Part shown: piece by piece, positions 8,093-48,984 of the stretch
Position numbering within the stretch: the stretch's first letter is position 1
Layout of the letters: each line of letters starts with the position of its first letter
Virus record (IMG/VR): IMGVR_UViG_3300038829_000267
Location: 1-61,080 of that record
Strand: one strand, 5' to 3'
Length of the DNA: 61,080 nucleotides
DNA from: a virus
Taxonomy: Duplodnaviria; Caudoviricetes
Made by a program: the position numbers and the translations under genes
The notes under the pieces: model-generated
What the model was told of the DNA's origin: nothing
What the model saw: only the letters and a program-made list of their open reading frames with translations
Databases searched by the model: none

Positions 8093-8100
8093 TTCGCGAC

Positions 8101-9750: not shown

Positions 9751-10224
9751 ATGCTTCGAGGCCACAACCTCACCAGCGCCGTGCTGGTCAAGCGTCTGAA
9801 GGTCGACGGCACGAACTACACGGCCGCCGCCGGGCAGACCGCCCTCACCTCCGAATCCCACAACGTGGGGTGCCGCTCCTCGGCGCGGTTCCTCCTGAGC
9901 CTCGGCGCCATCACCTCGGGCGCCGTCACGTCGATCAAGGCGCAGCAGGCCGAGGACGACGGCGCCGGCTCGCCTCAGGCCAGCTGGGCGGACATCGAGG
10001 GCAGCTCGATCACGATCGCCGACACCGACGACAGCAAGACCGTCTCGCTCGAGATCGTGCACCCGGCCAAGCCCCACCTTCGCGTGGTCACTTCCAGGGC
10101 GACCCAGGACTCGGTCATCGACGCCCTGCACATCGAGGTCGCCGGCGACGCGGTCCCCGTCACCCAGCCCTCCAACTCGGTGGGAAACGAGATCCACGTC
10201 TGTCCGGACGAGGGGACGGCGTAA
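9751..10224 (+). CDS. probable capsid decoration / virion protein
   Basis: AGGAG RBS; beta-rich composition; directly after capsid. Confidence 0.65.
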   Translation: MLRGHNLTSAVLVKRLKVDGTNYTAAAGQTALTSESHNVGCRSSARFLLSLGAITSGAVTSIKAQQAEDDGAGSPQASWADIEGSSITIADTDDSKTVSLEIVHPAKPHLRVVTSRATQDSVIDALHIEVAGDAVPVTQPSNSVGNEIHVCPDEGTA

Positions 10225-10259
10225 ACCCGTCCCCGCGAGTGACAAGGAGCCGCCAAGCT

Positions 10260-17873: not shown

Positions 17874-18385
17874 TTAGCGCCCTGAGCTGGCACCTCCAGC
17901 ACGGGGCGCTCCTCGAGTCATTGACCGGGTGGCGGCGCGACACCGACGAGACCTATGCCGAGCAGCGACAGATGGTCCTCGAGGGGAATCGTGAGGCGGG
18001 CTTCCGGTCACTCGAGGAGCTCGACGCCTGGTACGCAGGCCAGCACCTCCCGCAGTGGGACGACTACGTCGGCCCGCTGCCGTCGGTGCTCGAGATCTGG
18101 AACGGCTTCTGGGATCTCGACGGCGACAGGGCGGTGGTCGTGATCGCCGGCCCGATGGGCGGCGGCGTCACGATGCACCGCCGCATCCCCTACATCTCTC
18201 GCTCCAAGTGGCTCGATGACCAGGGCTTCGTAGGTCACGAGCGCCACCGCGCGAAGCGCCTGATCGACGCGATGGACGCCACCTTCGTCCGCGTGCGCAA
18301 CGCCGAAGGCGCTGACCCCGACGACGAAGACGACAGCGACGCGGCGATGGACGACTGCGACGAACTCGATGGTGACCTCGACTGA
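17864..18385 (+). CDS. tail assembly chaperone frameshift extension (gpT-like), reached by -1 frameshift at A AAA AAC (17864-17870)
   Basis: The -1 frame is open from the slippery site (KLISALSWHLQHG...) into ORF 17921-18385. Confidence 0.8.
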   Translation, partial: KKLISALSWHLQHGALLESLTGWRRDTDETYAEQRQMVLEGNREAGFRSLEELDAWYAGQHLPQWDDYVGPLPSVLEIWNGFWDLDGDRAVVVIAGPMGGGVTMHRRIPYISRSKWLDDQGFVGHERHRAKRLIDAMDATFVRVRNAEGADPDDEDDSDAAMDDCDELDGDLD

Positions 18386-21300: not shown

Positions 21301-24300
21301 GACGTCAACGAGGCGATCGCCTTCGGCATCAACGAGGCGTTGCGCAGCGCCGACACCTCGGGACTGTCCGACAACCAGCAGCAGATCCTCCGCTACGCCG
21401 CCGCTCGCAACGCCGCCTCCCAGGCCGGCGGCCTGGCGAGCGAGGTTTCGCTCGACGACGTCACCAAGGGGCTCGACTTCGCGAAGTTGGTCGACCGGAT
21501 GGGCCTCGGCTCGATCGGGACCAAGCTGGCCAACGACATCGAGACGACGCGCAGGCAGCTGGCCGACGCCATCAAGTACGGCTTCGCGACCGAGGAAATC
21601 CAGAAGATCAAGGACCAGCTGGTGGGCTCGTTCCGCGACGTCCGAGAAGGCCTGTCGACGGAACTGGCAAACCTCTCGGGCACCTCCACCCAGGCCGGCG
21701 ACGCCGTGCTTGGTTGGTCCAAGCACGTCGACGACCTGCTGAAGGGCATTCGCGAGTACAACGCTGCCCTCACCCAACAGGCGGCGAAGGAGCGCGAGCG
21801 AGTCGCGGCCATTCATGCCGAGATCGCGGCCCAGACCCAGGCCGCGGCCGCCGCGCGCGCGAACGCAGCGCGCCTGCTCGCTGAAAGTCCCGACCCCGCC
21901 ACCGGCGGGCACGGCGGCCCTCGGACGCCTGGCGGCGGAGCTGGCGACGACGGCAGCCCCGGGACTGGAACCGGCACTGGTCCGACGCCATACCAGGAGC
22001 AGATCCTCGCGGCGCAGGCCGCCGACGAGGCGATCCGCCAGCTCACGGCCGAGCTCGACGGGCTCGGGGCGACCTCGGAGCAGACGGCGATCGACGTCAA
22101 CACGTCGATCCTCGCGCTCATTCACGGTAGCTCCCGGATCTTCGACGACTTCACGGCTCAGTTCCTTGATGGGCCGGTCGAGGCCTTCAACCGCCAGATC
22201 GAGCAATTCGGCGAGTACCGCGACGCCGCCAGCGACGTCTACGACGAGAACCTCCGGATCGCCGAGACCGACGAGCAGCGCTCGGCCGCCGCCACGGAGT
22301 TGCAGCACAGCCTCGACGAGCTCGCCGCAGCTCAGGACGCCTATCTGAAGTCGGTGGCCGACACCGCCCAGCTGGACCTCTTCAGCGGCCTCGCCGGCTT
22401 GCTGGCCGAGGGGCCGCAAAAGGAAGAGGCGATGCGCCGGTCGGCCGAGCTGCGCTACGACCTCGCGCGCGCCGAGCTGCGACTCAAGTACGAGGAGCTG
22501 AAGCTCGCCAACGAGAAGTACAAGGCCGAGCACGACGGCGTCCAACTGATCGCCCAGTCGACCCTCGACTGGATCAACGACACGCTGAACAGCCTCCCGG
22601 AGGACAAGGGCACCGGGGACGGGGGTGGCGACAGCGGCAACGGCTCGGGCGGCGGGCGCGGCGGCGGTGGCCGGCGCGACGCCCGCGAGAACCTCCTCGG
22701 GCAGCTCTCTGACGCGATGCGCGGCCCGCTCGGTACCTGGCAGAAGCAGGTGGCCGATTGGAAGCAGCAGACCGAGGACTGGCTGAAGGAAGCCAAGCGT
22801 CTCGGCATCTCGCTCGACGACGTGCGCAAGGCGAGCGAGGAAGTGCGCAAGCGGATGGCGGCCGACGCCCAGGCCCAGATCGACCAGATGATCCACCCGT
22901 CATCCTCGGCGGGAAAGCAGGTCATCGACCTCAAAAAGTGGCGCGCCGACCTCGACAAGGTGGCCAAGGAGCTCGGGCTCTCGGGCGCCGAGATCGCACA
23001 GGCCTACCGCGCCCAGTTCCGCCGGATCGTTGCCGAGGTACGCCAGGGCGTCGCCGAGTACGCCAACGTCTTCGGCGAGGGCGGGCTCAAGATCGCCTTG
23101 CTCGACAACGCCCGCCAGGCCGATGACCTGCGGCACAGCCTCGAGGACCTGAAGAAGGAGAACCCGCTCCTCGACATCACGGCCGACATGGAGGCGGTGA
23201 ACGAGGCTGAGCGCGAGCGCGCCCGGTTGCTCACTCAGCAGGCGAAGATCGGGGCCCTCGAGGGTCTCGACAAGTGGGTCGACGATGCGCGGTTGTCGAC
23301 CGAGCTCACGAAGCTCAAGGGGCAGCTTGAGATCGAGCAGCTGCGGGCCCAGATCGAAGGCTTGATCGTGGCTGGCCGGCTCGATGCCGAGCACCAGGCG
23401 CTTTACCTCGGGTGGCTCGACGAGGCCGAACGGAAGATCAGGGAGGCGTACAACGATCCCCCGCCAGGGGATCCCCCGCCGCCGATCGACACCAGCGGCG
23501 TCGAGGAGCAGATCGCCGGAATCTTCGACCCCACCGGAGGGCTGCGCGGCCGCATCGGCCAGATGCGGAAGGACTTCGATGGCATCCAGAAGGCCATCAA
23601 GGATCTGCACCTGCCGACGGCAGAAGAGACCCGGCTTCTCGCCGAGCTCGACGGCCAAATGGCTCGGTCCCGCGAAGCTGCCGGGCTCGAGGAGACGGCT
23701 GGGCTCTTCGAGGGCATTGCCCAGTACCTGCAGGACGGCACCGAGAAAGAGGAGTTGCTCCGTCGCGCCGCCGAGATTCGCTTCGACATGGAGCGCGCCT
23801 CGATGCAGGCGCGCCTCGACCTGCTGGTCGCCGAGCACCTCATCACCACTGAGAACCAGGCGCTCATCCAGAAGGGCCTGGACTGGATGCTCGAGCACCG
23901 CGACGAGATCCTCAGCGGGTTCGGCAGCAGCGGCGGGAGCGGTGGCGGTGGCGGTGGGTCAAGCAACTATGACGACGCCCAGGGTCTGATCGACAGCCTC
24001 CGCGGCATGCTCACGTCCGACCTGCCGGACGTGCAGCAGCGCTTCGCCGACCTCGACCTCGAGTTCGAGCGGATCCGCGAGCAGGCAGCGGCCCTCAACT
24101 TGGATCGGCTGCTTGGGCCTGGCGGCGGCGCGGCCCTCATCGACGAAGCCTACGCCGCCCGCATTCGCGCGCTGTGGGACGAGATCCTCCAGCCCCTCGA
24201 CGAGTTCGTGCACGGGCTCGACCTGTCTGCCCTCTCGCCGCTGACGCCGCAACAGCGGCTGGCCGAGGCCGCCAGCCAGTTCAACACCACCGCGCAGGCC

Positions 24301-24780
24301 GCCCTCGCCGGCGACGCCACTGCCGCCTCTCAGCTCGCCCAGATGGCGCAGCAGTACCTCCAGGAGGCCCAGGGTCTCGGCACCTCGACCGCGGCTTACC
24401 AGGCGATCTATGCCCAGGTCCTGGCGATCTCCCAGCAGGTACTGGCGATGCATGCCGGCGTGACCACGGTCCCGACGCCGATCGGCGCCCCGGCGGGCGG
24501 CGGTCCTGGCTCGAACGTGCTGTTGTTCCCCAGCCTCCCGGCCGGAAGCTCCTCGCCGACGTCGGTGGCCGCCGGCTACGAGCTCAGCATGCGGACCGAC
24601 GGTGCCATCACCGCGGCGATCAACCGCTTTGCCAACCAGAACCACGAGGATCTGCGCGACGTCCGCGGCGTGCTGGTCGACATTCGCGGCGTGCTGCAGG
24701 CGTCGACCGCGAATCGCAACTCTGCGCACGACCGGCTGATCGGCGGCGTCCAGCAGGTGGGCCTCCGGGGGCGGAGATAG
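18385..24780 (+). CDS. tail tape measure protein
   Basis: 2131-aa helical Ala-rich protein; LLTFTKIG, AAVQVGKALQDPVNGITAL motifs; follows chaperones. Confidence 0.95.
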   Translation: MAKSVETSVVIRMITSSVKEGEVAVRAAMESMAREGAKTQATIMSVTEQAGRAARKQAAETDRVRRSYEDLASRLDPVIGKQLALAKATETLAKAEKAGLVSSEERSRYLKLAQTEFGATSEGARGLARNVLSTVAPWLSLFGAVQLGSSALRQARDEAQQLRSTNAQLEAGLKSTGNQVGYTVTQLGEMARGLEDVSTADDATIGGALSVLLTFTKIGHDAFPQAAQAALDLSTRMGGDLSSAAVQVGKALQDPVNGITALKKQGISFAAEQQTVIERLVKTGDVAGAQAVILKELSVEVGGSAAAARAAAGGVFELGKAGEDSSKLIGAQLLPVLDELGASLASRLPAATEVFLGAFRGVSDVLTTVPGKIAAVSLGLAGMQGAFTVVTAFVAANPFGALALGIGAVGLALNALVTRWGAASSAAIDNDVAVTNAAGSIVGLAQAAKAGAPVTQALFDQAKAGADKLRTSVEAVTKRLADLREERARMASAFGEGSVEVGRVDIQINASSEELRSLQTNLNNLSGLLRQVKVDAGAVGAAMMGPGSPSEGFRELTKDLESQIAEQQKLRSAWAQGQGAGDRMAREVAIAREVAEATKGLTESEAGYVESLIRRRAALEGQVAAEREHQELVKQTAADFKALEERLDPAVAAQRRFDEGFTKLTAQLAAGELPLERYLLLTAKLRDELYPDTAGQGNSLADELARLRAEQLRGAIDASNPGDALQGGGFGAKILAELRERQKLEEKAKKTGEDRLKDQRKEIDNWYALGQIVADAFSTMDEGLGRAIGQSAALAANIADAYASWKASGGKNGYSAEGVAGGMQTGQQVGSLGEQFGAWQGQRGAGQYGGTLSGDYGSTGSMVGGAIGSYFGPVGGLIGSLLGGVIGGAIKTGADEGLGQLRDIGNDVALRITSDEGGLGSVVARIGNAIASGLGRISEVTGGLFANIPDIDIKVRDDVVSIFVNGIVRRFKDVNEAIAFGINEALRSADTSGLSDNQQQILRYAAARNAASQAGGLASEVSLDDVTKGLDFAKLVDRMGLGSIGTKLANDIETTRRQLADAIKYGFATEEIQKIKDQLVGSFRDVREGLSTELANLSGTSTQAGDAVLGWSKHVDDLLKGIREYNAALTQQAAKERERVAAIHAEIAAQTQAAAAARANAARLLAESPDPATGGHGGPRTPGGGAGDDGSPGTGTGTGPTPYQEQILAAQAADEAIRQLTAELDGLGATSEQTAIDVNTSILALIHGSSRIFDDFTAQFLDGPVEAFNRQIEQFGEYRDAASDVYDENLRIAETDEQRSAAATELQHSLDELAAAQDAYLKSVADTAQLDLFSGLAGLLAEGPQKEEAMRRSAELRYDLARAELRLKYEELKLANEKYKAEHDGVQLIAQSTLDWINDTLNSLPEDKGTGDGGGDSGNGSGGGRGGGGRRDARENLLGQLSDAMRGPLGTWQKQVADWKQQTEDWLKEAKRLGISLDDVRKASEEVRKRMAADAQAQIDQMIHPSSSAGKQVIDLKKWRADLDKVAKELGLSGAEIAQAYRAQFRRIVAEVRQGVAEYANVFGEGGLKIALLDNARQADDLRHSLEDLKKENPLLDITADMEAVNEAERERARLLTQQAKIGALEGLDKWVDDARLSTELTKLKGQLEIEQLRAQIEGLIVAGRLDAEHQALYLGWLDEAERKIREAYNDPPPGDPPPPIDTSGVEEQIAGIFDPTGGLRGRIGQMRKDFDGIQKAIKDLHLPTAEETRLLAELDGQMARSREAAGLEETAGLFEGIAQYLQDGTEKEELLRRAAEIRFDMERASMQARLDLLVAEHLITTENQALIQKGLDWMLEHRDEILSGFGSSGGSGGGGGGSSNYDDAQGLIDSLRGMLTSDLPDVQQRFADLDLEFERIREQAAALNLDRLLGPGGGAALIDEAYAARIRALWDEILQPLDEFVHGLDLSALSPLTPQQRLAEAASQFNTTAQAALAGDATAASQLAQMAQQYLQEAQGLGTSTAAYQAIYAQVLAISQQVLAMHAGVTTVPTPIGAPAGGGPGSNVLLFPSLPAGSSSPTSVAAGYELSMRTDGAITAAINRFANQNHEDLRDVRGVLVDIRGVLQASTANRNSAHDRLIGGVQQVGLRGRR

Positions 24781-34107: not shown

Positions 34108-34956
34108 TTACGAGGGCGCGTGCTTCCCGTGCTCTTCGTGCATCAAGCGGTCCATCTCGTCCACGAAGCCAAGGAGCTGGGACTCCAGCACGATCTCGTG
34201 CGGGCAAGCCATGCGGTCAAGGATCGCGCACCCGTCGTCGAAGGCGCCCTTCAGCTCCGGCGCCGACGGCGGCGCCACGATGAGATGCGCCTTGAAGGGC
34301 TCCCGGCTCGCCCTGAGCAAGGTCCCGCGTCCCAACCACTTGGTGGCCTTGTCCAGGATGGACTGCGGCTCGAGGAGGTCGAAAGACACGGCGTCGCAGG
34401 CGTGCCAGAGCCCGTTCTTGTAGGCCAAAGGGAAAGTGTGGGTGACTCGCAGGTCTCCCACGATCTCCTTTGACTCCATCCTCGACAGCAGCTTCCTGTC
34501 GGATAGCGGTCGCCGGACAGCGTTGAGCACTTGGGCATCGTCGCGCCGCGCGTTCGCCTGATCGGCATGGCGCTCGACGTAGCGGGTGAATAGACGCGCC
34601 AGGAGCGCGTCGAGGTCCTGAGTCAGGCCGGCCCCGCCGGTCACGAACTGGACGGCGGAGTCGTCGTGCGGGAACACGCGGGCGATGCAGTCCTCCGCTG
34701 TCCGCGGAGCTCGAAGGGGGTGCTTCTCCAGGTCCCTTGCTAGTCGGCGAAGGCCCTTCTCCACGCCGTCGAGCGTGGCCCTCAGGCCTCGTTTGTCGAA
34801 GTGTCCGAAGAAGTCGGTGAGACGCGAGACATGAGTTGAAACCTTGAACAGTAGAGACCCGCTCTGCGGGCAGTACAGGACCACGCCTACGTTGGCAAAT
34901 TCGGCGGCAACGAGGTCCGGGATGTATCTGATGAGCGCGAAGCTGTAGGTCTTCAT
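34108..34956 (-). CDS. DUF3037-domain protein
   Basis: YSFALIRYIPDLVAAEFANVGVVLYCP N-terminus. Confidence 0.85.
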   Translation of the reverse strand: MKTYSFALIRYIPDLVAAEFANVGVVLYCPQSGSLLFKVSTHVSRLTDFFGHFDKRGLRATLDGVEKGLRRLARDLEKHPLRAPRTAEDCIARVFPHDDSAVQFVTGGAGLTQDLDALLARLFTRYVERHADQANARRDDAQVLNAVRRPLSDRKLLSRMESKEIVGDLRVTHTFPLAYKNGLWHACDAVSFDLLEPQSILDKATKWLGRGTLLRASREPFKAHLIVAPPSAPELKGAFDDGCAILDRMACPHEIVLESQLLGFVDEMDRLMHEEHGKHAPS

Positions 34957-35756
34957 TGCAGCGCTCTCCTCACGGCGTTGACGAATGGCTTCCTCTCGCG
35001 ACGTGCGCGCTCGAGGCGCTCCGTCACCAGCGCCAGTATGCGCTCGTCTCGCAGGTCATGCGGAATCGGCGAGAAAAGACGCTGCACCGCCAGGGGAGTC
35101 AGGCGCGCCAGGTCCTTGGCGAACCCGTCCAGCTCTGGGGCAAGCCTTGTCCGCAGGATAGCAGCCGCCACCGGGTGCGTGCCGATGCAAGCCAGCGCCG
35201 GCCCAATCCAGTCGCCGCCCCCGCCTCCAAGCGCGTAGCAGAAGGCGAATGCGCTCTCGTGGTCGATAGCGACGATGCGCCCCTGGTGATTCAGCAGGTT
35301 GGGCTTGTCGAGCCTTCGGTCGGCGTGTTCAACCAGCATGTCGAAGGCGACGACGCGCGAGGCACCGTCGGCATCATCGAGCCGAACTCTTGAATCGTGG
35401 CCCCATGTCGTCGTGTCCCTGAGGTAGCGCGAGCCGAACATCGGCTGCGTCGCAACGGCGAGCATGCTGCCGACCCTTCCCGGCACCGTGGCCACAAGGC
35501 CATCCGCGAGCGAGACGAGGCAGGGTTCGGGTGTTCGGATCCTGAAGTAGTTGGCCAGTAGGGCGCCGAGGATCTCGAGGCATCGAGCCGGTGGCTCCAG
35601 GAATTTCGCCACCACCTCGAACGGAGGTTCTCCGGGCGATTCGCACTCGAGCAGACAGGGGCAGGTGCGACCGCTCGGGAAGGGGACATCCCTCCACGCG
35701 ACCGCGGTCACGGCCCGCATGGGCATAGGCAGGGATGGCGACCTAAGTCTTACCAT
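34953..35756 (-). CDS. HipA-like Ser/Thr kinase
   Basis: GRTCP loop, VVAKF, FGSRY, AFDMLVEHADRR..PNLL, IVAIDHESAF; start could be 35756, 35726 or 35720. Confidence 0.85.
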   Translation of the reverse strand: MVRLRSPSLPMPMRAVTAVAWRDVPFPSGRTCPCLLECESPGEPPFEVVAKFLEPPARCLEILGALLANYFRIRTPEPCLVSLADGLVATVPGRVGSMLAVATQPMFGSRYLRDTTTWGHDSRVRLDDADGASRVVAFDMLVEHADRRLDKPNLLNHQGRIVAIDHESAFAFCYALGGGGGDWIGPALACIGTHPVAAAILRTRLAPELDGFAKDLARLTPLAVQRLFSPIPHDLRDERILALVTERLERARRERKPFVNAVRRALQ

Positions 35757-36317: not shown

Positions 36318-36857
36318 TCAGTCGTCCTTCACCCGAAGGGTCAGACGAAGCGTCGGGCCTGGCTCGGCCTCATACGCCGCCGCGAAGGCTCCCTCCTCGA
36401 CCGCCAAGCGCGAGGTGAAGATCCGAGAGCGCTTCTCCTCGACCTGTCCAGACACCGGCGCGGCTGTCGCCAGCACCTTGCCGGCGGACACGAACTCGAT
36501 CAGGACGTCGACCAGCTTGTCGTGGGAGGGCTGAACCGCAACGGTCGCGAGCACGTCGAACACCGCGCTCTTCTTCCCGGCGACCTTCTTCGACTTCCGC
36601 TTCAGCATCACCGAGATCGCCTGAAAGTAGGCGTTCTCGCAGATGTAGCCGTCGACGTCCTTGAGCAGGCGCGAGCCGTTCTCGGGGAAGCGCAGGAGCG
36701 GCGGCGCGGGGAACTCGAGGATCATCGGCGATTGGAACTGCTGCTGAACCGCGCCCTGGGTCGCTACGACCTGGGCGTTGCCCGCACCCAAGGGCGCGAT
36801 CAGGGCTGCCGACCACAGCGCGAGCAGTCTGGCTAGGCGGCGTCTTCGGTACGGCAT
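36318..36857 (-). CDS. secreted/periplasmic protein of unknown function
   Basis: MPYRRRRLARLLALWSAALIAPLGAGNA signal peptide; beta-rich body. Confidence 0.7.
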   Translation of the reverse strand: MPYRRRRLARLLALWSAALIAPLGAGNAQVVATQGAVQQQFQSPMILEFPAPPLLRFPENGSRLLKDVDGYICENAYFQAISVMLKRKSKKVAGKKSAVFDVLATVAVQPSHDKLVDVLIEFVSAGKVLATAAPVSGQVEEKRSRIFTSRLAVEEGAFAAAYEAEPGPTLRLTLRVKDD

Positions 36858-36976
36858 GGTCGTCCCCCCTTGGTTGAATAGGTGCCGGCCGACGCGAAAA
36901 TCTGACACGCCTGGGCCGCCGGAAACGTCTATCGGAAGCGGGATGCTACACCCGGCAGGTGCCTAGAGTGCGAGCC

Positions 36977-37792
36977 ATGACCAACCAACCTCGCGCGTCC
37001 CTCACTGTCGTCGGCACGGGCATCGCCGTCGGCGCCCAGACCACCCTCGAGGCTCGACTGGCGATCGAGCAGGCCGATCGGCTCCTGCACCTGGTGGCCG
37101 ACCCGGTGGCGGAGGCCTGGCTCGGCCGACGCCACTCCGCCGGGGAGAGCCTGCGCGACTGCTACCGGGAGGGCCGGCCGCGCCGCGACTCCTATGCCGA
37201 GATGGTCGCGCGGGTTCTGGCCGCCCTCGCCGCCGGCGGCCGCGTGGTCTGGGCGACATACGGACACCCGGGCGTCTTCGCCGGCGCCTGCCACCAGGCC
37301 CTTCAGGCGGCGAGGGCCGCCGGCTATCCGGCGCGCATGCAGGCTGGTGTCGGTGCCGACAGCTGCATCTGGGCAGACCTCGAGGTGGATCCTGGGCAGC
37401 ACGGCGTGCAGCAGTGGGAGGCCACGGACTGGCTGTTACGGCGCCGCGGCTGGGACGCGACGTCGCTGCTCGTGCTCTGGCAGGTCGGGGCGATCGGGCA
37501 GGGAGGTTGGAGCGAGTCGGGGTGGGACATGCGCCGCGGCCTGGGCGTGCTGGCTCGGCGCCTCCTCGAGCAGTACCCCGCCCGGCACCAGGCGTGCCTC
37601 TACGAGGCAGCGGTGTCGCCGGCGCTGCGGCCGCGCCGTGACCTGGTGGCGATCGAGGACCTCGCCGGCGCCGCCGTGAGCACCGCGACGACCCTGGTTG
37701 TCTTCCCGCTGCCCCCGCGCCCGTGGGACAGATCTGTAGCAGATGATGTCGGTCTGTCAGATTTCGGTGGCGAGCGGCACTATACGGGGTAG
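36977..37792 (+). CDS. borosin-type SAM-dependent peptide alpha-N-methyltransferase (tetrapyrrole methylase fold)
   Basis: SLTVVGTGI, ADP, CY-x5-R-x3-Y (Y63/R69/Y73), YGHPGVF, GVGADSCIWADLEVDP, EATDWL, LWQVG, LYEAA match OphMA/SonM-type enzymes as I recall them. TAGAGT lies 7 nt before the ATG (possible leaderless transcript). Confidence 0.88.
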   Translation: MTNQPRASLTVVGTGIAVGAQTTLEARLAIEQADRLLHLVADPVAEAWLGRRHSAGESLRDCYREGRPRRDSYAEMVARVLAALAAGGRVVWATYGHPGVFAGACHQALQAARAAGYPARMQAGVGADSCIWADLEVDPGQHGVQQWEATDWLLRRRGWDATSLLVLWQVGAIGQGGWSESGWDMRRGLGVLARRLLEQYPARHQACLYEAAVSPALRPRRDLVAIEDLAGAAVSTATTLVVFPLPPRPWDRSVADDVGLSDFGGERHYTG

Positions 37793-37850
37793 GGGTCACT
37801 GTCGGCCCCTGGTATGGGGCTCGCCCAGTCTGGCCCCTGGAGTCGCACCA

Positions 37851-37979
37851 ATGGACCTCGACCAGCTCCTCGACCTTGCCGACGCCCCAACGCTCGATGC
37901 AATCGAGGCCGCCCAGGACCTCGCCTTGGCGGCGCCGGCAGGCCACGCACCGCTGCTGATCATCCTCGCTGACGAATGA
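37851..37979 (+). CDS. 42-aa peptide, candidate borosin precursor
   Basis: GGAG RBS; MDLDQLLDLADAPTLDAIEAAQDLALAAPAGHAPLLIILADE; ATGA overlap with the next gene. Confidence 0.6.
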   Translation: MDLDQLLDLADAPTLDAIEAAQDLALAAPAGHAPLLIILADE

Positions 37980-38569
37980 CACCCGCTGCCCGAGCGCTCG
38001 CCATTCGTGGCGCGCTCGAGCTCGCCGGTGTCGAGTCCACCGTTGAACCCGGCGGGCTCGGTCGCGTGGCCGAGCTCGCCGGCGCGATGGGAGAGCATCC
38101 GCTCGGCCTGGGCTGCATGGCCGTCAGCGAGCGGTTTGGCGAACGAGCGACAGACGCGGCCGAGCTCGGTGCTCCAACGACCGAGGTGGTCCTCGTGCGT
38201 CTGGCCGGCTCCTGGTACGTGAGCGATGGCGAGGAGCTCGAGCGCCAAGGTCTGGCTGGCCGCGAGCTCACGACCATCCTGCCTGCCTCGATCGCGGGTC
38301 AGACGTTGCGCCTGCTCGACCTCGCTCTAGAGGGCGACCCTAGGGCAACCCGACCGACCATCAAGCGGGTTGTCACCGCCTGTTGCGGCGTCGTCGAGGC
38401 GGCGACGTCCTATGAATTCGAGCCCGCCGGCGGGGGCGTGGCTGTGCGCTACCGGTATTGGTTCCTGGCCCACCACGGGTGGCCGACCGTCTCGCCCGAC
38501 GAAATGCTGCGGCGCCGGCTAATGCGGCTTGCCGACCAGCTCTCGAGGTTTCGAGATCAGCTCGACTGA
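37976..38569 (+). CDS. hypothetical protein, possible PAS-like C-terminal domain
   Basis: LAGRELTTILP...LLDLALEG followed by beta strands; coupled start. Confidence 0.55.
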   Translation: MTPAARALAIRGALELAGVESTVEPGGLGRVAELAGAMGEHPLGLGCMAVSERFGERATDAAELGAPTTEVVLVRLAGSWYVSDGEELERQGLAGRELTTILPASIAGQTLRLLDLALEGDPRATRPTIKRVVTACCGVVEAATSYEFEPAGGGVAVRYRYWFLAHHGWPTVSPDEMLRRRLMRLADQLSRFRDQLD

Positions 38570-38916
38570 CCGGACGGTCCCGGGCCGAGCCGCTTCTTCA
38601 GCTCGGTGAACTCGCGCTCGACGACATCGAGCATCTTGTGAATCGCCAGCAGGCGCTCCGCCTCCTCATCGCCCGCCGCCCTTGCTTCGGCGGACAGGGC
38701 ATCTGCCGTGCCGAGCAGATAGTCCGCTGAGATCTTGAGCTCGCGGCAGAGCCGCACCAGGGCGTCGGGATCAGGCGAGCGCCGCCCCGAGGCCCAGTGA
38801 GACAGGGTGCTTGGGTCGACGTTGATCGCCCGGGCGATCTCGGCCCGCGACGCGCGCCCTTTGGTGACGGCCTCGTCAAGGGCCTCATCGAGTCGCCGGG
38901 CGCCAGTCCATGACAT
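38557..38916 (-). CDS. XRE-family HTH repressor (cI-like)
   Basis: SRAEIARAINVDPSTLSHWASGRRSP...ISADYLLG; divergent from cro-like gene. Confidence 0.9.
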   Translation of the reverse strand: MSWTGARRLDEALDEAVTKGRASRAEIARAINVDPSTLSHWASGRRSPDPDALVRLCRELKISADYLLGTADALSAEARAAGDEEAERLLAIHKMLDVVEREFTELKKRLGPGPSGQSS

Positions 38917-38950
38917 AGCGCCAAGTCTGCGCGCACTTTCGTGCACTTGC

Positions 38951-39000
38951 TGTTGACAATTCGCCAACACTGACCTAGATTCGTTGACGAAATGTCAACG
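38951..39000 (+). promoter_or_regulatory. early rightward promoter with two 19-bp palindromic operators
   Basis: TTGACA (38953-38958), 17 bp, TAGATT (38976-38981); operators TGTTGACAATTCGCCAACA (38951-38969) and CGTTGACGAAATGTCAACG (38982-39000). Confidence 0.85.
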
Positions 39001-39240
39001 CCACTTGCCGATGTGCTCGCCCGTTGCGGCATCACCCAGTCCGATGTGGCTCTCGCGCTGGGTGTAGACAACTCGACCATCAGTCACAAGCTCGCCGGTC
39101 GGCGACGCTGGTCTCAGCCGGAGGTCACCGTCCTGCTCGCCCTGATCCGGCGGAAGGACCCGATGGTCGGCTACGACGATCTGTTCGCGGCCTCCGAGGT
39201 GGAGGCCGAAGCGCTCGTTACAGACCCGGTGGAGGCGTAG
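38992..39240 (+). CDS. Cro-like HTH regulator
   Basis: ITQSDVALALGVDNSTISHKLAGRRRW. Confidence 0.88.
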   Translation: MSTPLADVLARCGITQSDVALALGVDNSTISHKLAGRRRWSQPEVTVLLALIRRKDPMVGYDDLFAASEVEAEALVTDPVEA

Positions 39241-39552
39241 ATGCCCGCTCTCCAGGCCCGCGAGGCAAACGCCGCCGTCGGGATGGTCATGGACGAGCGG
39301 TGGCGCCAGCTCCGCCTGTATCCCATCCAGCACGACGACACCCACGACGCAGGCGAGATCGCCCAGGCCGCCGCTGCGTACGCCCTCGCCTCGGCCGCCG
39401 AGACCGACCTCGAGCGCGAGATCGCCGTCGACACTTGGCCCTGGGAGCTGGACGACTTCAAGCCGTCGACTCCACTCGCCGACCTGATCCGCGCCGGCGC
39501 GCTCCTGCTTGCCGAGATCGAGCGCCGCCTCCGGGCGGGAGAGGAGGCCTAG
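39241..39552 (+). CDS. conserved phage hypothetical protein
   Basis: ERWRQ...HDD, AAAYAL, WPW...FKP...LIRAGALLLAEIER. Confidence 0.75.
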   Translation: MPALQAREANAAVGMVMDERWRQLRLYPIQHDDTHDAGEIAQAAAAYALASAAETDLEREIAVDTWPWELDDFKPSTPLADLIRAGALLLAEIERRLRAGEEA

Positions 39553-39555
39553 GCC

Positions 39556-39837
39556 GTGGTCACCACCAACCACGACGGCGCGGAGCGCTGCTGCTGCGAC
39601 CGGTGCTGCCGCAAGGACCCCAGCCGGGGGCTGACTGCCGCTCAGGACGCGCTGCTGGTCGACCTGGTGATTGCCGGCTCCGACGGGATCAGCAGTGCCG
39701 ACTTCGATAGCGGGATGACCGGCCGCAGCTGGCGGCCACTGGTCGAACGCGGCCTGGTCGAGTTCAAGCCGGCGACGGCGCCGGCCACGTTCGTCGTCAC
39801 CACTGCGGGACGCGAAGTACTCGCCGCGAGGAGCTGA
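39556..39837 (+). CDS. hypothetical protein (possible winged HTH)
   Basis: LTAAQ...LVERGLVE...VTTAGREVL. Confidence 0.55.
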   Translation: MVTTNHDGAERCCCDRCCRKDPSRGLTAAQDALLVDLVIAGSDGISSADFDSGMTGRSWRPLVERGLVEFKPATAPATFVVTTAGREVLAARS

Positions 39838-39840
39838 CCC

Positions 39841-41058
39841 GTGGCGCCCCCATTCACCAGCCCCGAGGACCGACCGATGACCGCCGAACCGAAATCCGCC
39901 TTGCTGCCGTCTCGCCTGGAGGCTCTCGCCACCATCACGCTCCAGCACGGAGGCCACCCGAGCTTCGCCGCCGGGCACTGCGCACTGGAGACGGTCGCAT
40001 GGCTGGCCGGCGGCCCGCACACCGATCACCCCGACTGCGTCTCGCCGGTGATCGCGGCGTTCGTCCGGAACTGGAACGACGGCCTCCTGACCGACGATGA
40101 CCGGAACCGCCTGCTGCGTCCGATCCTGCCTGAGCTGGTCGGTACTGCGACGACCGTCGCGGACGAGGAGACGCGGGCCTGGCTGCTGGTGGATTGGCTG
40201 GCGCGTGTACAGGCCCCGGCGTGGCTGAGCCTCACTGCTGGCCTGGCGCCGCACGCTGCGGTCCTCAAGGCGCTGCCGGCGATCGCCGACGCGGCCAGCG
40301 CAGCGACGGCCCGCGGGCCACTGGCCGCCGCCAGGGCCGCCGCCAGGGCCGCCGCCAGGGCCGCCGCCAGGGCCGCCGCCTGGGACGCCGCCTGGGACGC
40401 CGCCTGGGACGCCGCCTGGGCCGCCGCCAGGGACGCCGCCAGGGACGCCGCCAGGGCCGCCGCCAGGGCCGCCGCCTGGGACGCCGCCTGGGCCGCCGCC
40501 AGGGACGCCGCCAGGGACGCCGCCAGGGCCGCCGCCAGGGCCGCCGCCAGGGCCGCCGCCTGGGACGCCGCCAGGGCCGCCGCCTGGGCCGCCGCCAGGG
40601 ACGCCGCCAGGGACGCCGCCTGGGACGCCGCCAGGGCCGCCGCCAGGGCCGCCGCCTGGGCCGCCGCCAGGGACGCCGCCAGGGACGCCGCCTGGGCCGC
40701 CGCCAGGGACGCCGCCAGGGACGCCGCCAGGGACGCCGCCAGGGACGCCGCCTGGGCCGCCGCCAGGGACGCCGCCAGGGACGCCGCCAGGGACGCCGCC
40801 AGGGACGCCGCCAGGGACGCCGCCTGGGCCGCCGCCAGGGACGCCGCCAGGGACGCCGCCAGGGACGCCGCCAGGGACGCCGCCAGGGACGCCGCCTGGG
40901 CCGCCGCCAGGGACGCCGCCAGGGACGCCGCCTGGGCCGCCGCCAGGGACGCCGCCAGGGACGCCGCCAGGGACGCGCTCGCACCTACGGTGCTCGCGCT
41001 CCAGGCCTCCGCCGTCGAGTTGATCCGCACGATGTGCGTCGTCGGCCGGGCGGCCTGA
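39841..41058 (+). CDS. phage protein with AA(R/W)(A/D) tetrapeptide repeats
   Basis: Globular N-terminus (HCALETVAWLAGGPHTDHPDCVSPVIAAF) then repeat; start may be 39877. Confidence 0.8.
   Translation: MAPPFTSPEDRPMTAEPKSALLPSRLEALATITLQHGGHPSFAAGHCALETVAWLAGGPHTDHPDCVSPVIAAFVRNWNDGLLTDDDRNRLLRPILPELVGTATTVADEETRAWLLVDWLARVQAPAWLSLTAGLAPHAAVLKALPAIADAASAATARGPLAAARAAARAAARAAARAAAWDAAWDAAWDAAWAAARDAARDAARAAARAAAWDAAWAAARDAARDAARAAARAAARAAAWDAARAAAWAAARDAARDAAWDAARAAARAAAWAAARDAARDAAWAAARDAARDAARDAARDAAWAAARDAARDAARDAARDAARDAAWAAARDAARDAARDAARDAARDAAWAAARDAARDAAWAAARDAARDAARDALAPTVLALQASAVELIRTMCVVGRAA
40327..40974. repeat. tandem array of 54 x 12-bp units GCCGCC[A/T]GGG[A/C]C
   Basis: Read directly; 648 bp; only unit positions 7 and 11 vary. 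Confidence 0.95.
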
Positions 41059-41061
41059 GCC

Positions 41062-41559
41062 ATGGGCATGCCTCTCGCCGAGCAGTTCGAGCACCTGGGC
41101 GGATCCCGGGTCACGTTCCCCTCTGTCCGCCGCTGTCGCGTCTGCGGCTGCACCGACGCCGACTGCAGCAGCTGCATCGAGCGCACGGGCATGCCCTGCT
41201 CGTGGGTCGAGCCGGATCTCTGCTCCGCGCGCGAGGAGCGGCCCGAGGCGGACGTCGACCTCCAGGCCGCCGCGGTCGAGGTCGCGACTCCTGCCGGCGC
41301 TCCCGCGCTGACCGCCCTCCCGTGGAAGGTGGGGGCGGACGCGATCTTCGACCTGGCGGTCGAGGCCTCCGATGGGCTGGCGGTGGCCTACATCCTCGAC
41401 TGCCCTGACGCCGTCGACGTCGCTCGCCTCCTCGCTGCCGCACCTGACCTCCTGGCCGCCGCCGAGGCCGCGCTGGAGCTCATTGCCAGACCGCCTGTAC
41501 ACGCGACCGGGCCGGTCATGCGCCAGCTCCAGGCGGCCGTCGCCAAGGCGAGGGGCTGA
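41062..41559 (+). CDS. hypothetical protein with Cys-rich zinc finger
   Basis: CRVCGCTDADC...CSWVEPDLCSA; ARLLAAAPDLL. Confidence 0.7.
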   Translation: MGMPLAEQFEHLGGSRVTFPSVRRCRVCGCTDADCSSCIERTGMPCSWVEPDLCSAREERPEADVDLQAAAVEVATPAGAPALTALPWKVGADAIFDLAVEASDGLAVAYILDCPDAVDVARLLAAAPDLLAAAEAALELIARPPVHATGPVMRQLQAAVAKARG

Positions 41560-41562
41560 CCG

Positions 41563-42366
41563 ATGGCCCTCACCACCAAGCAGATCCCTGTCGCCGTGCT
41601 TGAGGTCCTCGCGGCCGGCACGTCGAGCGGCAATGCCTTCTTCCTGCCGCCTGGCCAGCTCGACCGGAAGCTGTATCAGGCCGTCGACCAGGTGCTGCAG
41701 GCGCTCGGCAGCAAGTGGAATCGGTCGCGGTCCGGACACGTGTTCGGCGGTCTGGTTCCCGGGGAGGCCGTCGAGGCCGCTGATCGCATAGCCGCCGCAG
41801 TTGCCAGCGGCAGCTACGACGACCCGAAGGCGCTCGCCTTCTTCGAGACGCCATCCGCGCTCGCGGCGCAGCTGGTTGCGGAGGCCGGCGTCCGCCGAGG
41901 TGACCGCTGCCTCGAGCCATCGGCCGGCGAGGCCGCCATCGCGAGGTGGTTGGCCGCCGCGGGCGGGCTCGACAACCTCGTCTGTGTCGAGGTGAATGCC
42001 CACCGCCAGCAGAGGCTCATCCAGAAGGGATTTAACCCGGTCTACGGCGGTGACTTCCTGTCGATGCAGCCGCCGACCGATGACGTCGACCGCTTCGCGC
42101 GGATCGTGATGAACCCGCCTTTCTCGCTGCCCGGGCAATCGCAAGCCGACATCGAGCACGTGACACACGCGCTGCGCTTCCTTGCTCCGGGCGGCAGCCT
42201 CGTTGCGGTGATATCGCGCGGCGTGCTCTTCCGCGGAAACGCGCGCACCCGAGACTTTGTCGAGCTGGTGAATCGCCACAAGGGTTCTATCGGCCTGCTG
42301 CCGGATGACGCCTTCGAGGTCTCGGGCACCAGCGTGCGGACCGCGGTTCTTCGGGTGGGGTGCTGA
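41563..42366 (+). CDS. N6-adenine-type DNA methyltransferase (class I SAM)
   Basis: FFETP, LEPSAG, GDFL, IVMNPPF. Confidence 0.85.
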   Translation: MALTTKQIPVAVLEVLAAGTSSGNAFFLPPGQLDRKLYQAVDQVLQALGSKWNRSRSGHVFGGLVPGEAVEAADRIAAAVASGSYDDPKALAFFETPSALAAQLVAEAGVRRGDRCLEPSAGEAAIARWLAAAGGLDNLVCVEVNAHRQQRLIQKGFNPVYGGDFLSMQPPTDDVDRFARIVMNPPFSLPGQSQADIEHVTHALRFLAPGGSLVAVISRGVLFRGNARTRDFVELVNRHKGSIGLLPDDAFEVSGTSVRTAVLRVGC

Positions 42367-45619: not shown

Positions 45620-46767
45620 CTTGGATCCGCATCGAGACCGACCTCGAGGCCCACCACAAGGTGGCGAAGCTCGCGCGCCTAACCGGCGAGCGAAATGCCG
45701 GGGTGTACCTCCTCCGGCTCTGGTCTTGGGCGGCACGGTGCGCCCGAGACGGCAACCTCGAGAACGTCGACATCGAGGACATCGCGACGGCCTGTCGCTG
45801 GGAGGGGGCGGCCGAGACCCTGGTGGCGGCGCTGGTCGCTGCCCGGTGGCTCGATCGCGACAGCACCTACGTAGCCGGCGACCTCAAGACCGGCGAAACC
45901 ATGGTGCACCCGTCCTCGCTCGTGATCCATGAGTGGTGGGAGTACCAGGGGCAGCACATCTTCAAGGCCCTGCGCGACGCCCAGAGGAAGCGACACCTAC
46001 GTGCCGGCGCGGATCAAGACGAGGAAACGGCGGGCGCGCGGCAAGCGCCCGGCCCCGGAGCGGCGCAGGAGCGGCGCGCGCCAGGCGCGCGCCGTGGCGA
46101 GGACGGGCGCGCGCCGCTCCGCGGACAGTCCTCGGACGGTCCAGCGCCTGGCGCGCGGACGGCGCAGGTACGTAACGGAGAAGACGGAGAGGACAAACAG
46201 AACAGACCTTCTCCCGTTGACGGTGACGGTGTATGTCGCACGCACGCGAGGCCGTCGCCGGCGACACCGGCGGCGACTGGGCCTGACAGCGAAGTTCAAA
46301 CCCCGGGATCGGAAGGCCCGGTGCAGGCGATCGGCAGGATCTACCGCGGGCTGGGCTTGGCGCCGCCCCCGCTAGCCGCCCTGGAGCGTTGGCTCACCCG
46401 AGCCGGCAGCGGCCAGGCGCTCGTGACCGTGATCCAGGATCTGGCCAGCCGGGGCGGGCTCGAGAAGGGGCAGCCTTACGTCTGGCGGACGATCGAGCGG
46501 GTCGCAAGCGGCGAGCCCCTGGGCTTCCCTTCGCCGGCGCCGCGAAACCTTCCGGAGCCGGAGGACGCCGAGACCATCCTGAATCGGGAGCGGGTCCTGG
46601 CCGTCCTCGACCTCGAGCCGCTGTTCAGCCGCACGCCGGATCCCGACGACACCCGCGACGCCTTTCGCGACGAGATCTTCGCCACGACCAGCAGCGAAGA
46701 CGTCGGACGCGTCAAGGCGCGCTGGCGCGCCGACCTGGCGCATTCCCCGGGGCCACTCTGTGTCTGA
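45616..46767 (+). CDS. putative replication initiation protein
   Basis: MTWIRIE...HHKV...LLRLWSWA...LVAARWLD...IHEWWEYQ N-terminus, low-complexity linker, helical C-terminus. Confidence 0.65.
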   Translation: MTWIRIETDLEAHHKVAKLARLTGERNAGVYLLRLWSWAARCARDGNLENVDIEDIATACRWEGAAETLVAALVAARWLDRDSTYVAGDLKTGETMVHPSSLVIHEWWEYQGQHIFKALRDAQRKRHLRAGADQDEETAGARQAPGPGAAQERRAPGARRGEDGRAPLRGQSSDGPAPGARTAQVRNGEDGEDKQNRPSPVDGDGVCRTHARPSPATPAATGPDSEVQTPGSEGPVQAIGRIYRGLGLAPPPLAALERWLTRAGSGQALVTVIQDLASRGGLEKGQPYVWRTIERVASGEPLGFPSPAPRNLPEPEDAETILNRERVLAVLDLEPLFSRTPDPDDTRDAFRDEIFATTSSEDVGRVKARWRADLAHSPGPLCV

Positions 46768-46820
46768 CCCCGCTGCCGCTGGATTCCGCCGGCTGGTCCG
46801 GCTCGCTCGAACCTCACAAG

Positions 46821-46923
46821 AAGGGGAGCGCTGGCCGCGTGTTAGAGCACGCGACCAGCACCCTCCGACCACAGCTCGCACTGTGGCCCTCAGGCCGATG
46901 GCTCCCCTTGCCCCGATCGGAGC
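46821..46923 (-). ncRNA. putative structured antisense / cis-regulatory RNA upstream of methylase
   Basis: Perfect 9-bp outer stem enclosing two hairpins; minus-strand TTGGGT-18-TAGACT promoter candidate at 46959-46930. Confidence 0.45.
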
Positions 46924-46975
46924 GCGCGGAGTCTACCGGCCAACCCCAACACCACCCAAGGGAGGCCACACCCGC

Positions 46976-47767
46976 ATGCTGAGTCCCGTGCCCTGGATGG
47001 GATCCAAGCGCCGCCTGGCGCCGAGGATCCTGCCGCTCATCCCCGACCACACCTGCTACGTCGAGGTCTTCGCCGGCTCCGCGGCGCTGCTCTTCGCCCG
47101 CGAGGAGCCCTCCGCCGTCGAGGTGATCAATGACCTGGACGGCGAGCTCGTGAACCTCTTCCGGGTGCTCAAGCATCACCTCGAGGAGTTCTGCAACCAG
47201 TTCAAGTGGGCGGTGGTGAGCCGGCAGATCTTCGAGTGGTCGAAGCAGACACCGCCTGAGGTCCTCACTGACATCCAGCGCGCAGCCCGCTTCTACTACC
47301 TGCAGCGCCTGTGCTTCGGCTCGAAGGCGACGGGTCGGACCTTCGGCTACTCGCCGACGACCAGGCCCCGTCTCAACCTGGTGCGCATCGAGGAGGGCCT
47401 GTCCGAGGTCCACGCCCGCCTGCACCAGGTGGTGATCGAGAACCTGACCTGGGAATCGTGCATCGCGCGCTACGACCGGCCGGGGACGTTCTTCTTCGTC
47501 GACCCCCCGTACCTCGGCCTCGCCGGCTACGAGGCCGGCGGCCGGTGGGAGGTCCCTGACTTCGAGCGCTTGGCTGCCACCCTCGCCGGCATCCAGGGCA
47601 AGGCGCTGCTGACCATCAACGACCACCCCGAGATGCGTCGGGTGTTCGCCGCCTTCCACGCGACGACGCTCAAGACCCGCTACACCGTCGGCCGTTCGGA
47701 TGCCTCTCGCGCCGAGGCGTCGGAGCTGCTGTTCCAGACCTGGTCGCCGGAGAAGAGGGATGGCTGA
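46976..47767 (+). CDS. Dam/D12-class DNA adenine methyltransferase
   Basis: GGAGG RBS; PWMGSKRRL, YVEVFAG, VINDLD, FVDPPY. Confidence 0.93.
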   Translation: MLSPVPWMGSKRRLAPRILPLIPDHTCYVEVFAGSAALLFAREEPSAVEVINDLDGELVNLFRVLKHHLEEFCNQFKWAVVSRQIFEWSKQTPPEVLTDIQRAARFYYLQRLCFGSKATGRTFGYSPTTRPRLNLVRIEEGLSEVHARLHQVVIENLTWESCIARYDRPGTFFFVDPPYLGLAGYEAGGRWEVPDFERLAATLAGIQGKALLTINDHPEMRRVFAAFHATTLKTRYTVGRSDASRAEASELLFQTWSPEKRDG

Positions 47768-47990
47768 GCAGGCGGTGCTCGAGCAGCTCGGCCCGTATGC
47801 CGCGGACGAGGCAGCGGCCTACGACGCCGGCTACGCCGCGAAGTTGGCCGGCTGGGACCGCGAGGCCTGGCCGCCCGAGGGTGCGGCCGAGAGCGGGCTC
47901 GTTCGGAGCTGGCTGCAGGGCTGGGACGCGGCCGAGCAGGCGCTCTATCACCGAGTCATGCAGCTCAAGAGGGAGGCAACGCGTGGCTGA
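47760..47990 (+). CDS. hypothetical protein
   Basis: AYDAGY...SWLQGW (Rmf/CrpP-like pattern). Confidence 0.55.
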   Translation: MAEQAVLEQLGPYAADEAAAYDAGYAAKLAGWDREAWPPEGAAESGLVRSWLQGWDAAEQALYHRVMQLKREATRG

Positions 47991-48984
47991 CCAGCGCAAG
48001 GGCGGGATCGGCTGGGCCGACGAGACCTGGAATCCGGTCCGGGGCTGCTCTCGGGTCAGCCCGGAGTGCCTCAGATGCTACGCCGAGGACCAGGCGCTCC
48101 GGATCGCACGGTTCGACCGCGGCCGCGGCGTACCGGAGGGCCAGGGTGCGTACGACGGCCTGGTGAAGGCGGTCGACGGCGACGCTCGCTGGACGGGCAA
48201 GGTCCGATTCGTCCGCGAGCACCTCTCGGACCCGCTTCGGTGGCGTCGCCCTCGCCGGATCTTCGTCAACTCGATGAGCGACCTCTTCCACGAGGAGCTC
48301 ACCGACGACCAGATCGCCGCCGTGTTCGGCGCGATGCTGCTGGCACCGCAGCACACCTTCATCGTGCTGACCAAGCGAGCCCGGCGGATGCGCGAGTGGT
48401 TCGCCCAGGCGAGCCTGACCGATTGCGTCGCGTGTTACTGCGTCGAGGGCGGACCTGACGTCTACGCGGGCGGCTGGGAGCTGGGGCGGAAAGAGGTCCT
48501 GACGGCGGTCAATACCGGCTGGCCGGCGAGCAACGTCTGGTTGGTGGTCTCGGCCGGCGCGCAGCCATACGCCGACCAGCGGATCCACGAGCTGCTCCTG
48601 ACGCCGGCGGCAGTCCGGGGCGTGAGCTACGAGCCGATGATCGGGCCGCTCAATCTCGAGAGCGTTGCCGCGCCGCTCGCCTCGACGCCGGGACTGATCA
48701 ACGCGCTGTCGGGCGACTTCTGGCCGGCCCTCGGAGACGTCGAACTCGAGCACGAGCGTCGCTATGAGCTGCCGAAGCTGGACTGGGTGATCGCCGGCGG
48801 CGAGAGCGGGCCGGGCCACCGGGTGATGGATCCGGCCTGGCTGGCGTCGATCGACGAGCAGACACGGAACGGCGGCACAGCGCTCTTCGTGAAACAGGAC
48901 TCCGGCCACCGCGACGGCCAGCAGGGGCGGATACCTGACGCCATCTGGGCCCGGAAAGAGTTCCCCAAGGGCGGTGCTGCGTGA
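47983..48984 (+). CDS. DUF5131 / Gp37Gp68-family radical-SAM-like protein
   Basis: TWNPVRGCSRVSPECLRCYA, IFVNSMSDLFH, LTKR, SYEP, DWVIAGGESGP. Confidence 0.92.
   Translation: MADQRKGGIGWADETWNPVRGCSRVSPECLRCYAEDQALRIARFDRGRGVPEGQGAYDGLVKAVDGDARWTGKVRFVREHLSDPLRWRRPRRIFVNSMSDLFHEELTDDQIAAVFGAMLLAPQHTFIVLTKRARRMREWFAQASLTDCVACYCVEGGPDVYAGGWELGRKEVLTAVNTGWPASNVWLVVSAGAQPYADQRIHELLLTPAAVRGVSYEPMIGPLNLESVAAPLASTPGLINALSGDFWPALGDVELEHERRYELPKLDWVIAGGESGPGHRVMDPAWLASIDEQTRNGGTALFVKQDSGHRDGQQGRIPDAIWARKEFPKGGAA

Follow-up and report, generated by a model that had tools for sequence, protein, structure and literature searches.

Organization of the locus

Borosins belong to the RiPPs (peptides made on the ribosome and modified after translation) and are characterized by backbone N-methylation, and the borosin-type cassette described here lies in IMGVR_UViG_3300038829_000267, a 61,080-bp IMG/VR provirus record (CheckV completeness 75%, 70% G+C) that was analysed over its whole length and is called the window below. 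The cassette consists of three co-oriented open reading frames (ORFs) on the plus strand, which encode a borosin-type methyltransferase without a fused borosin binding domain (BBD), a 42-residue peptide and a 197-residue protein (Table 1). A preliminary description of this DNA had proposed the three genes and an overlap of 13 bp between the last of them and a convergent repressor gene. The ORFs are confirmed, with the codon-position G+C pattern of other phage genes, and their G+C at third codon positions (GC3) is 0.86, 0.79 and 0.78, respectively, compared with 0.78-0.91 for the repressor, cro-like, capsid and terminase genes. The overlap of the two stops is exactly 13 bp as well (38557-38569), and the convergent gene does encode an HTH_3 (helix-turn-helix) repressor.

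The peptide gene begins at the first start codon past the methyltransferase stop, is preceded at a distance of 8 nt by GGAG (37839-37842), and is also present as a protein in the source collection's own gene calling. Its TGA overlaps the ATG of the 197-residue gene (ATGA). Upstream of the methyltransferase, the leaderless -10 element of the preliminary description is present as TAGAGT, and a leaderless promoter may be located there. The pattern TANNNT-N6-8-[AG]TG has only two occurrences on both strands of the window, and of 43 candidate gene starts only that of the methyltransferase shows TANNNT-N6-8-start, so the spacing is not a common chance feature; a sigma-70 two-hexamer scan, however, reported no promoter at 36964-36969, which leaves the hexamer and its rare spacing standing and the promoter itself putative.

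Table 1. Features of the cassette and its surroundings, and fragments of a bioreactor relative aligned to the window
Feature	Position	Strand	Remarks
DUF3037 protein gene	34108-34956	-	PF11236; PADLOC PDC-M66B, E 3e-57
HipA_2-like kinase gene	34953-35756	-	PF20613; PADLOC PDC-M66A, E 7.4e-29
-10-like hexamer TAGAGT	36964-36969	+	7 nt before methyltransferase ATG; possible leaderless promoter
Borosin-type peptide alpha-N-methyltransferase, 271 residues	36977-37792	+	no fused BBD; PF00590, SonM/OphMA matches
42-residue ORFan, candidate BBD-less precursor	37851-37979	+	acidic helical N-terminus; hydrophobic C-terminus ending PLLIILADE
197-residue ORFan	37976-38569	+	ATGA overlap with peptide gene; apparent translational coupling
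cI-like HTH repressor	38557-38970	-	longest ORF start 38970; likelier start ATG 38916
Switch region	38952-38999		two 17-bp operator-like sites and sigma-70-like promoter toward cro-like gene
Cro-like small HTH protein	38992-39240	+	divergent from repressor; weak HTH_31/HTH_3, below Pfam cut-offs
Relative, fragment	36881-37161		16 differences and 1 gap; upstream 191 nt of contig unlike window
Relative, fragment	37804-38061		6 differences and 1 gap
Relative, fragment	37867-38162		7 differences
Relative, fragment	38297-38664		54 differences
Relative, fragment	38749-39113		46 differences

The methyltransferase

The first protein of the cassette is, judged by its sequence, a borosin alpha-N-methyltransferase with a full-length reading frame, as had been proposed. 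It carries PF00590 (Pfam, E 1e-14), and in a phmmer search of the PDB it aligns with SonM (7ltc, E 4.8e-44) over residues 8-260 of 271 and, likewise end to end, with OphMA (5n0q, about 9e-42), dbOphM (about 1e-41) and MroMA (1.7e-34). In the SonM alignment, Y63, R69, Y73 and Y95 correspond to SonM Y58, R67, Y71 and Y93, which according to the SonM study are important for catalysis and S-adenosylmethionine (SAM) binding, as revealed by mutation (PMC8429565). Similarly, F101, E148, W168 and Q169 correspond to F99, E146, W166 and Q167, which the same study presents as lock residues (PMC8429565). All eight positions fall in invariant columns or in columns with at least 90% conservation, and it is this retention of active-site and lock residues, together with PF00590 and the end-to-end similarity to SonM and OphMA, that places the enzyme in the borosin family. 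In total, 374 homologues were found at E <=1e-10 among 8000 scored candidates. The best relative among 5.8 billion clustered proteins shows 51% identity, and a short-fragment protein search with the enzyme returned none above 56%. The window enzyme keeps 51 of the 57 columns of >=90% conservation, and it bears no extra domain.

The 42-residue peptide as candidate substrate

Relatives of the methyltransferase were compared at 80 cellular loci and 1 viral locus, with a BBD profile built from 74 SonA-like precursor ORFs, which combine the helical borosin binding domain with a short hydrophobic core. A BBD ORF was detected at E <=1e-3 in 72 of these 81 loci, where it lies just upstream on the same strand (36), divergently (13), just downstream (9), farther off (12) or fused to the enzyme (2). 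Nine loci gave no match, of which two are cut at a contig edge and at least two reveal something like a BBD ORF on visual inspection or at a less stringent E. In the window, the best match of the profile (E 0.13) falls on the cro-like ORF. Because neither the putative precursor nor the enzyme carries a BBD, the cassette does not qualify as a canonical split borosin cluster of type IV. The split-borosin cassette of the preliminary description therefore stands only in part: the enzyme is of the borosin type and stands alone, and a candidate peptide is indicated by position, composition and modelling, but the arrangement differs from the canonical one. Furthermore, tblastn searches of the 81 methyltransferase loci with the peptide, the 197-residue protein, the repressor and four upstream genes gave no matches.

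The position of the peptide gene, after that of the methyltransferase, has precedent in 9 of the 81 loci. Its product has a hydrophobic C-terminus, with LLIIL as the core of the terminal stretch, and precursors at the homologous loci likewise end in short hydrophobic cores. A run of at least five aliphatic residues within the last 12 is found in just one of the 195 other window ORFs of 30-60 residues. In addition, a complex of two enzyme and two peptide chains was modelled with a score of 0.79, compared with 0.26 for the best of three controls. Of 80 solved complexes, 58 reach this mark, as do 2 of 110 mismatched pairs. The runs, in which the enzyme chains were modelled with an alignment, agree in at least 84% of contacts, with a partner predicted local distance difference test value (pLDDT) of at least 65. 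In the confidently predicted contacts, residues 1-26 of the peptide meet residues 8-51, 89 and 214-218 of the enzyme. The SonA BBD is reported to wrap mainly SonM loop 208-216, and this loop aligns with residues 211-219 of the window enzyme, so the N-terminus of the peptide is predicted to sit on the loop where the SonA BBD binds. Since SonM-SonA complexes have been solved, the success of the model may partly reflect likeness to, or memory of, these structures, and what the prediction conveys is likeness rather than binding. On these grounds, the 42-residue peptide is a credible candidate substrate of the methyltransferase.

The 197-residue protein

The third protein had been described as PAS-like. 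It has no family in Pfam (E <=0.01), NCBIfam, PHROG or PADLOC, and no sequence match in the PDB. A search of 1.84 billion representative proteins gave no credible relative either; two non-self matches were judged spurious, being multi-stretch alignments to much longer proteins. The single-sequence AlphaFold model has a pLDDT of 38, and the structural neighbours in the Atlas reach template modelling (TM) scores of at most 0.36, with no PAS protein among them. Both are too weak for a fold to be assigned. With neither a family match nor a structural neighbour in its favour, the PAS assignment finds no support.

Proviral setting and the lysogeny switch

The element is a temperate-phage provirus in an uncultured groundwater bacterium. 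PHROG and family searches identified the small and large terminase subunits, the portal, the major head protein, the tail tube and an integrase in the window. The terminase, portal, head and tail tube genes occupy the left part, and a 2131-residue ORF (18385-24780) is the presumed tape-measure gene, to judge by its length and location. An accessory block on the minus strand (33.6-36.9 kb) is followed by the three plus-strand cassette genes and then by the divergent repressor/cro-like pair. Right of the switch lie early genes for DNA methylases, DUF5131, a ParB-like protein and an AAA ATPase, and a tyrosine integrase is encoded at the right end. The cassette is thus placed deep within the provirus, with structural genes on its left and, on its right, the repressor and cro-like genes followed by the early genes and the integrase, and its borosin methyltransferase gene is truly phage-borne.

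Several observations concern the rest of the element. The large terminase (3313-5139, plus strand) shows less than 50% identity to that of any cultured phage, the best matches being phages of Halomonas, Klebsiella and Ralstonia; because the identity is this low and the nearest cultured-phage relatives are drawn from several Proteobacteria, it gives no indication of which host the 70% G+C provirus has. No transfer RNA gene was found in the 61-kb window. The gene divergent from the methyltransferase (36318-36857, minus strand) encodes a protein without a family; started at ATG 36857, it has a strong AAGGGGGG ribosome-binding site, and the N-terminus of the product then comprises, by eye, an arginine-rich stretch and a hydrophobic segment resembling a secretion signal. 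A 405-residue ORF (39841-41058, plus strand) consists in translation mostly of alanine-rich repeats with AARDAARDAAW-like units. Another plus-strand gene (41563-42366) has weak N6 DNA methylase similarity, and 3' of it a D12-class adenine methylase gene (46760-47767) is followed by the DUF5131 gene (47797-48984).

The lysogeny switch that had been reported beside the cassette was also recovered. The repressor matches HTH_3 (E 1.5e-10), the RstR and DicA families weakly, and the PHROG transcriptional repressors. Between it and the divergent cro-like HTH gene lie a sigma-70-like promoter (TTGACA-17-TAGATT, 38953-38981) and two operator-like sites (38952-38968 and 38983-38999) of the form GTTGAC-N5-GYCAAC, exact copies of which occur nowhere else in the window. 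With divergent HTH genes, a promoter and repeated operators in place, the region looks like a functioning switch on sequence grounds. A third, weaker operator-like copy (38911-38929) overlaps the likely repressor start at 38916, and the three sites together form a layout reminiscent of lambdoid switches. A motif scan of the window found no copy of the operator motif at or near the cassette promoter, and no terminator-like site was found between the convergent 197-residue and repressor genes. The cassette does adjoin the switch, but none of these observations connects it with the choice between lysis and lysogeny.

Relatives, rarity and neighbouring candidate defence genes

The preliminary description had suggested looking in viral databases for conservation of the cassette. 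Among 50,697 phage records (INPHARED), neither blastn with positions 36900-39300 nor tblastn with the enzyme gave a match. IMG/VR scans with the single enzyme sequence and with the repressor confirmed no relative, a scan with the capsid protein found relatives only at 35-37% identity, and a JGI metagenome scan with the enzyme yielded 160 pattern stretches, none of which was confirmed. A close relative of the phage was hence found in none of the INPHARED, IMG/VR or JGI contigs. Two further IMG/VR scans with motifs (the near-invariant YGHPGV(F/L) and one other), whose counts are lower bounds because the scans are limited by their patterns, confirmed one other contig (L002) from 12 and 15 pattern matches. 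Phage-borne borosin methyltransferases are therefore very rare.

The cassette is nonetheless kept, in fragments, by a relative represented in bioreactor-metagenome contigs (two runs of a different study), in which the methyltransferase start, the peptide gene and the 197-residue ORF are retained and the flanks are more diverged or replaced (Table 1). Fragments of the cassette are about 94-98% identical, the peptide region being the best-conserved piece. The neighbouring genes are replaced or deleted: the relative diverges from the window upstream of 36881 and lacks 39554-41060 and 41555-42361. The one difference listed within the methyltransferase gene, 37216 T>C, affects a third codon position and leaves the encoded residue unchanged. 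A recent, decayed host fragment, which the preliminary description named as a possible refutation, is argued against by a segment kept in a changed neighbourhood, a full-length ORF and phage-like GC3. As side observations, the segment from 39554 to 41060 is missing precisely (joint 39553>41061) and spans the repeat ORF, and the gene with weak N6 DNA methylase similarity is likewise absent from the relative (joint 41554>42362).

Two genes upstream of the methyltransferase, both the A and the B model of PDC-M66 are matched by the overlapping, adjacent HipA_2-like kinase and DUF3037 genes. PDC-M66, and also PDC-S59, are candidate defence families of PADLOC and are not experimentally proven. L002 is a P2-like phage contig (GPA, terminase, GPO scaffold, P2 capsid, GPD) carrying a BBD-linker-methyltransferase fusion gene (9416-10780, plus strand), which has replication genes on one side and the genes for portal and terminase on the other. 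This gene adjoins a candidate defence gene (7438-8751, minus strand) that matches PDC-S59 with E 6e-187; by eye, the G+C of the fusion gene appears lower than that of its flanks. Two unrelated temperate phages thus carry a borosin methyltransferase beside candidate defence genes, which is suggestive only. When the 80 cellular loci were searched by tblastn with phage hallmark proteins, integrases and candidate-defence proteins from the window and L002, no matches were obtained.

Comparison with known systems

The closest point of reference is SonM/SonA, the type IV split borosin system of Shewanella oneidensis (PDB 7LTC, 7LTE; PMC8429565). As in that system, the window encodes a stand-alone methyltransferase of about 265 residues that can be aligned end to end, followed by a separate small gene whose product has a hydrophobic C-terminal stretch, and the modelled leader touches the loop wrapped by the SonA BBD. 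The two differ in the precursor: SonA has a five-helix BBD (residues 1-53), whereas the window peptide measures 42 residues in total and has no BBD-profile match. In addition, the window enzyme is about 40-50% identical to its relatives, its PG(I/V)SAED motif is changed and its setting is a provirus.

Split borosin clusters without a BBD are known from Legionellales, according to a preprint (bioRxiv 10.1101/2024.01.09.574750). There, as in the window, the systems are split and neither enzyme nor precursor carries a BBD; the Legionellales clusters are chromosomal, however, in contrast to the genes inside the phage genome described here, and their precursors have conserved motifs of their own. 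The window enzyme does not group with the sole Coxiellaceae locus (L058) in the tree. The same preprint reports phage integrases near many Legionella and Shewanella split borosin clusters (bioRxiv 10.1101/2024.01.09.574750), and ssrA adjoins the S. oneidensis borosin cluster according to an earlier preprint.

In full-text searches of the literature on borosins with phage or prophage, no phage-encoded borosin was found to be described, which agrees with the preliminary description, whose author knew of no characterised phage borosin system. The combination of a borosin-type enzyme and a candidate precursor, as read from the sequence, is not known to have been reported for phages.

Phages are known to encode RiPP clusters of other classes; such RiPP or bacteriocin clusters were reportedly described by Dragos et al. 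in Curr Biol in 2021. Those clusters would resemble the window in being small ribosomal-peptide cassettes that serve as accessory traits of temperate phages, but they reportedly belong to other RiPP classes; the window cassette concerns borosin backbone N-methylation, and no export or immunity genes were recognised with it.

L002 shares with the window a borosin-family methyltransferase (38% identity) in an accessory locus of a temperate phage, with a candidate defence gene adjoining, and its enzyme too is on a long branch (1.11). It differs in encoding a single protein of 409-454 residues whose N-terminal part comprises a BBD and whose linker is acidic, and which resembles the fused 'type 0' or BBD-fused types, in lacking a homologue of the 42-residue or the 197-residue protein, and in belonging to an unrelated phage lineage.

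Interpretation of the cassette

Taken together, we favour, with a probability of roughly 0.5, a joint reading in which the cassette is an accessory ('moron') operon of the phage, with the late genes on one side and the immunity repressor on the other, that encodes a BBD-less split-borosin-like system with the 42-residue ORF as its precursor. In the mechanism that this reading suggests, the enzyme would dimerize like SonM and bind the acidic N-terminal ~26 residues of the peptide on a surface that includes the Domain-B loop 214-218, and, using SAM, it would place methyl groups on backbone amides of the C-terminal LLIIL stretch. The translationally coupled 197-residue ORFan might then act on or with the product, in processing, immunity or target binding. 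The likeliest role would be a lysogen-benefit or conflict function and not the control of the switch itself, because the cassette adjoins a candidate defence pair and the L002 gene adjoins a candidate defence gene.

Several points weigh against this reading. The first group concerns the precursor. A BBD ORF does occur in 72 of the 81 homologous loci, yet an unfiltered profile search of the whole window in all six frames found no BBD precursor, and the 42-residue ORF is absent from the best 41 profile matches listed for it. Searches with the peptide gave no relative among proteins of 23-74 residues and none in the PDB (the best match being an ankyrin repeat, E 0.19), and its Atlas feature score of 0.83 is at chance level; as no relatives were found, its status rests on position, composition and one model. 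In that model only the leader is confidently placed; for the last 16 residues, a location in the active site is not predicted with confidence. The second group concerns the enzyme. Six of the 57 highly conserved columns are changed, compared with a median of 1 among the 82 sequences, and five of the six changes fall within the PG(I/V)SAED motif (P123A, S126G, E128D, D129S and L131I), a possible sign that function is altered or weakened. A quick maximum-likelihood tree with the same number of sequences puts the enzyme on a long, unplaced branch (1.13, median 0.29). Finally, the relative's 37804-38061 fragment contains a gap whose position is not located, use of a leaderless transcript would depend on the host, and the defence link rests on two phages and on candidate PADLOC families.

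The alternative that survives best, which we nevertheless regard as unlikely, is that the enzyme is active and the 42-residue ORF is not its substrate, the methyltransferase acting in trans on a host BBD precursor or on another phage or host protein, with both ORFans unrelated to it. The prevalence of BBD precursors at the homologous loci (72 of 81) and the lack of one in the window agree with this idea, as does the BBD-binding loop region, which is retained in the alignment, and the peptide and the 197-residue protein are ORFans like many phage genes. A host precursor is only hypothetical, however, and the peptide gene occupies exactly the position of a precursor, with a ribosome-binding site and translational coupling; furthermore, the complex model passes its controls and places the leader on the BBD site.

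Less likely again is a functionless passenger, in which a host borosin methyltransferase would have been captured without its precursor and would be drifting, the downstream ORFs being chance or unrelated. The long terminal branch, the clustering of the changes at 6 of 57 conserved columns in one motif, the missing BBD and the lack of close relatives with the cassette in IMG/VR, INPHARED and JGI contigs would all fit such a gene. Against it, the frame is open over its full length with all examined catalytic residues, the composition matches the phage, the segment is about 94-98% identical in a relative whose neighbouring genes are replaced or deleted, and the one listed in-gene difference, 37216 T>C, is synonymous.

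The lysis-lysogeny signal of the preliminary description, in which the methylated peptide would feed into the decision in an arbitrium-like manner, is very improbable: the cassette does abut the repressor gene, with convergent transcription and no terminator-like site between, and borosin clusters are often near signalling or regulatory genes according to the earlier preprint, but the 42-residue ORF has no obvious signal peptide by eye, Pfam, NCBIfam and PHROG scans revealed nothing recognisable as an exporter, a receptor or a peptide-binding regulator, the cassette promoter has no switch-operator copy near it, and the L002 methyltransferase is nowhere near a switch.

Significance for borosin biology

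More than 2,500 bacterial borosin clusters have been mined according to the preprint on Legionellales (bioRxiv 10.1101/2024.01.09.574750), and bacterial borosins are widespread. Shewanellamide A is the sole isolated bacterial borosin product, without known activity or role. A phage accessory borosin enzyme beside candidate defence genes suggests a setting for function, namely lysogen fitness, superinfection or competition. A wider proposal, that borosin chemistry provides temperate phages with a weapon or shield encoded in accessory-gene hotspots such as those of this siphovirus-like provirus and of the P2-like L002, that N-methylated peptides act in phage-host or phage-phage conflict, and that the window system works with a BBD-free 42-residue precursor, is speculative and on balance doubtful; if the conflict role were true, it would provide the first functional clue for bacterial borosins. 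Should the 42-residue peptide be the substrate, the enzyme would use a very short, BBD-free recognition sequence, the smallest recognition element known for its class, which would be useful for engineering backbone-N-methylated peptides. If this reading of the cassette is correct, borosins would join the few RiPP classes known on phage genomes.

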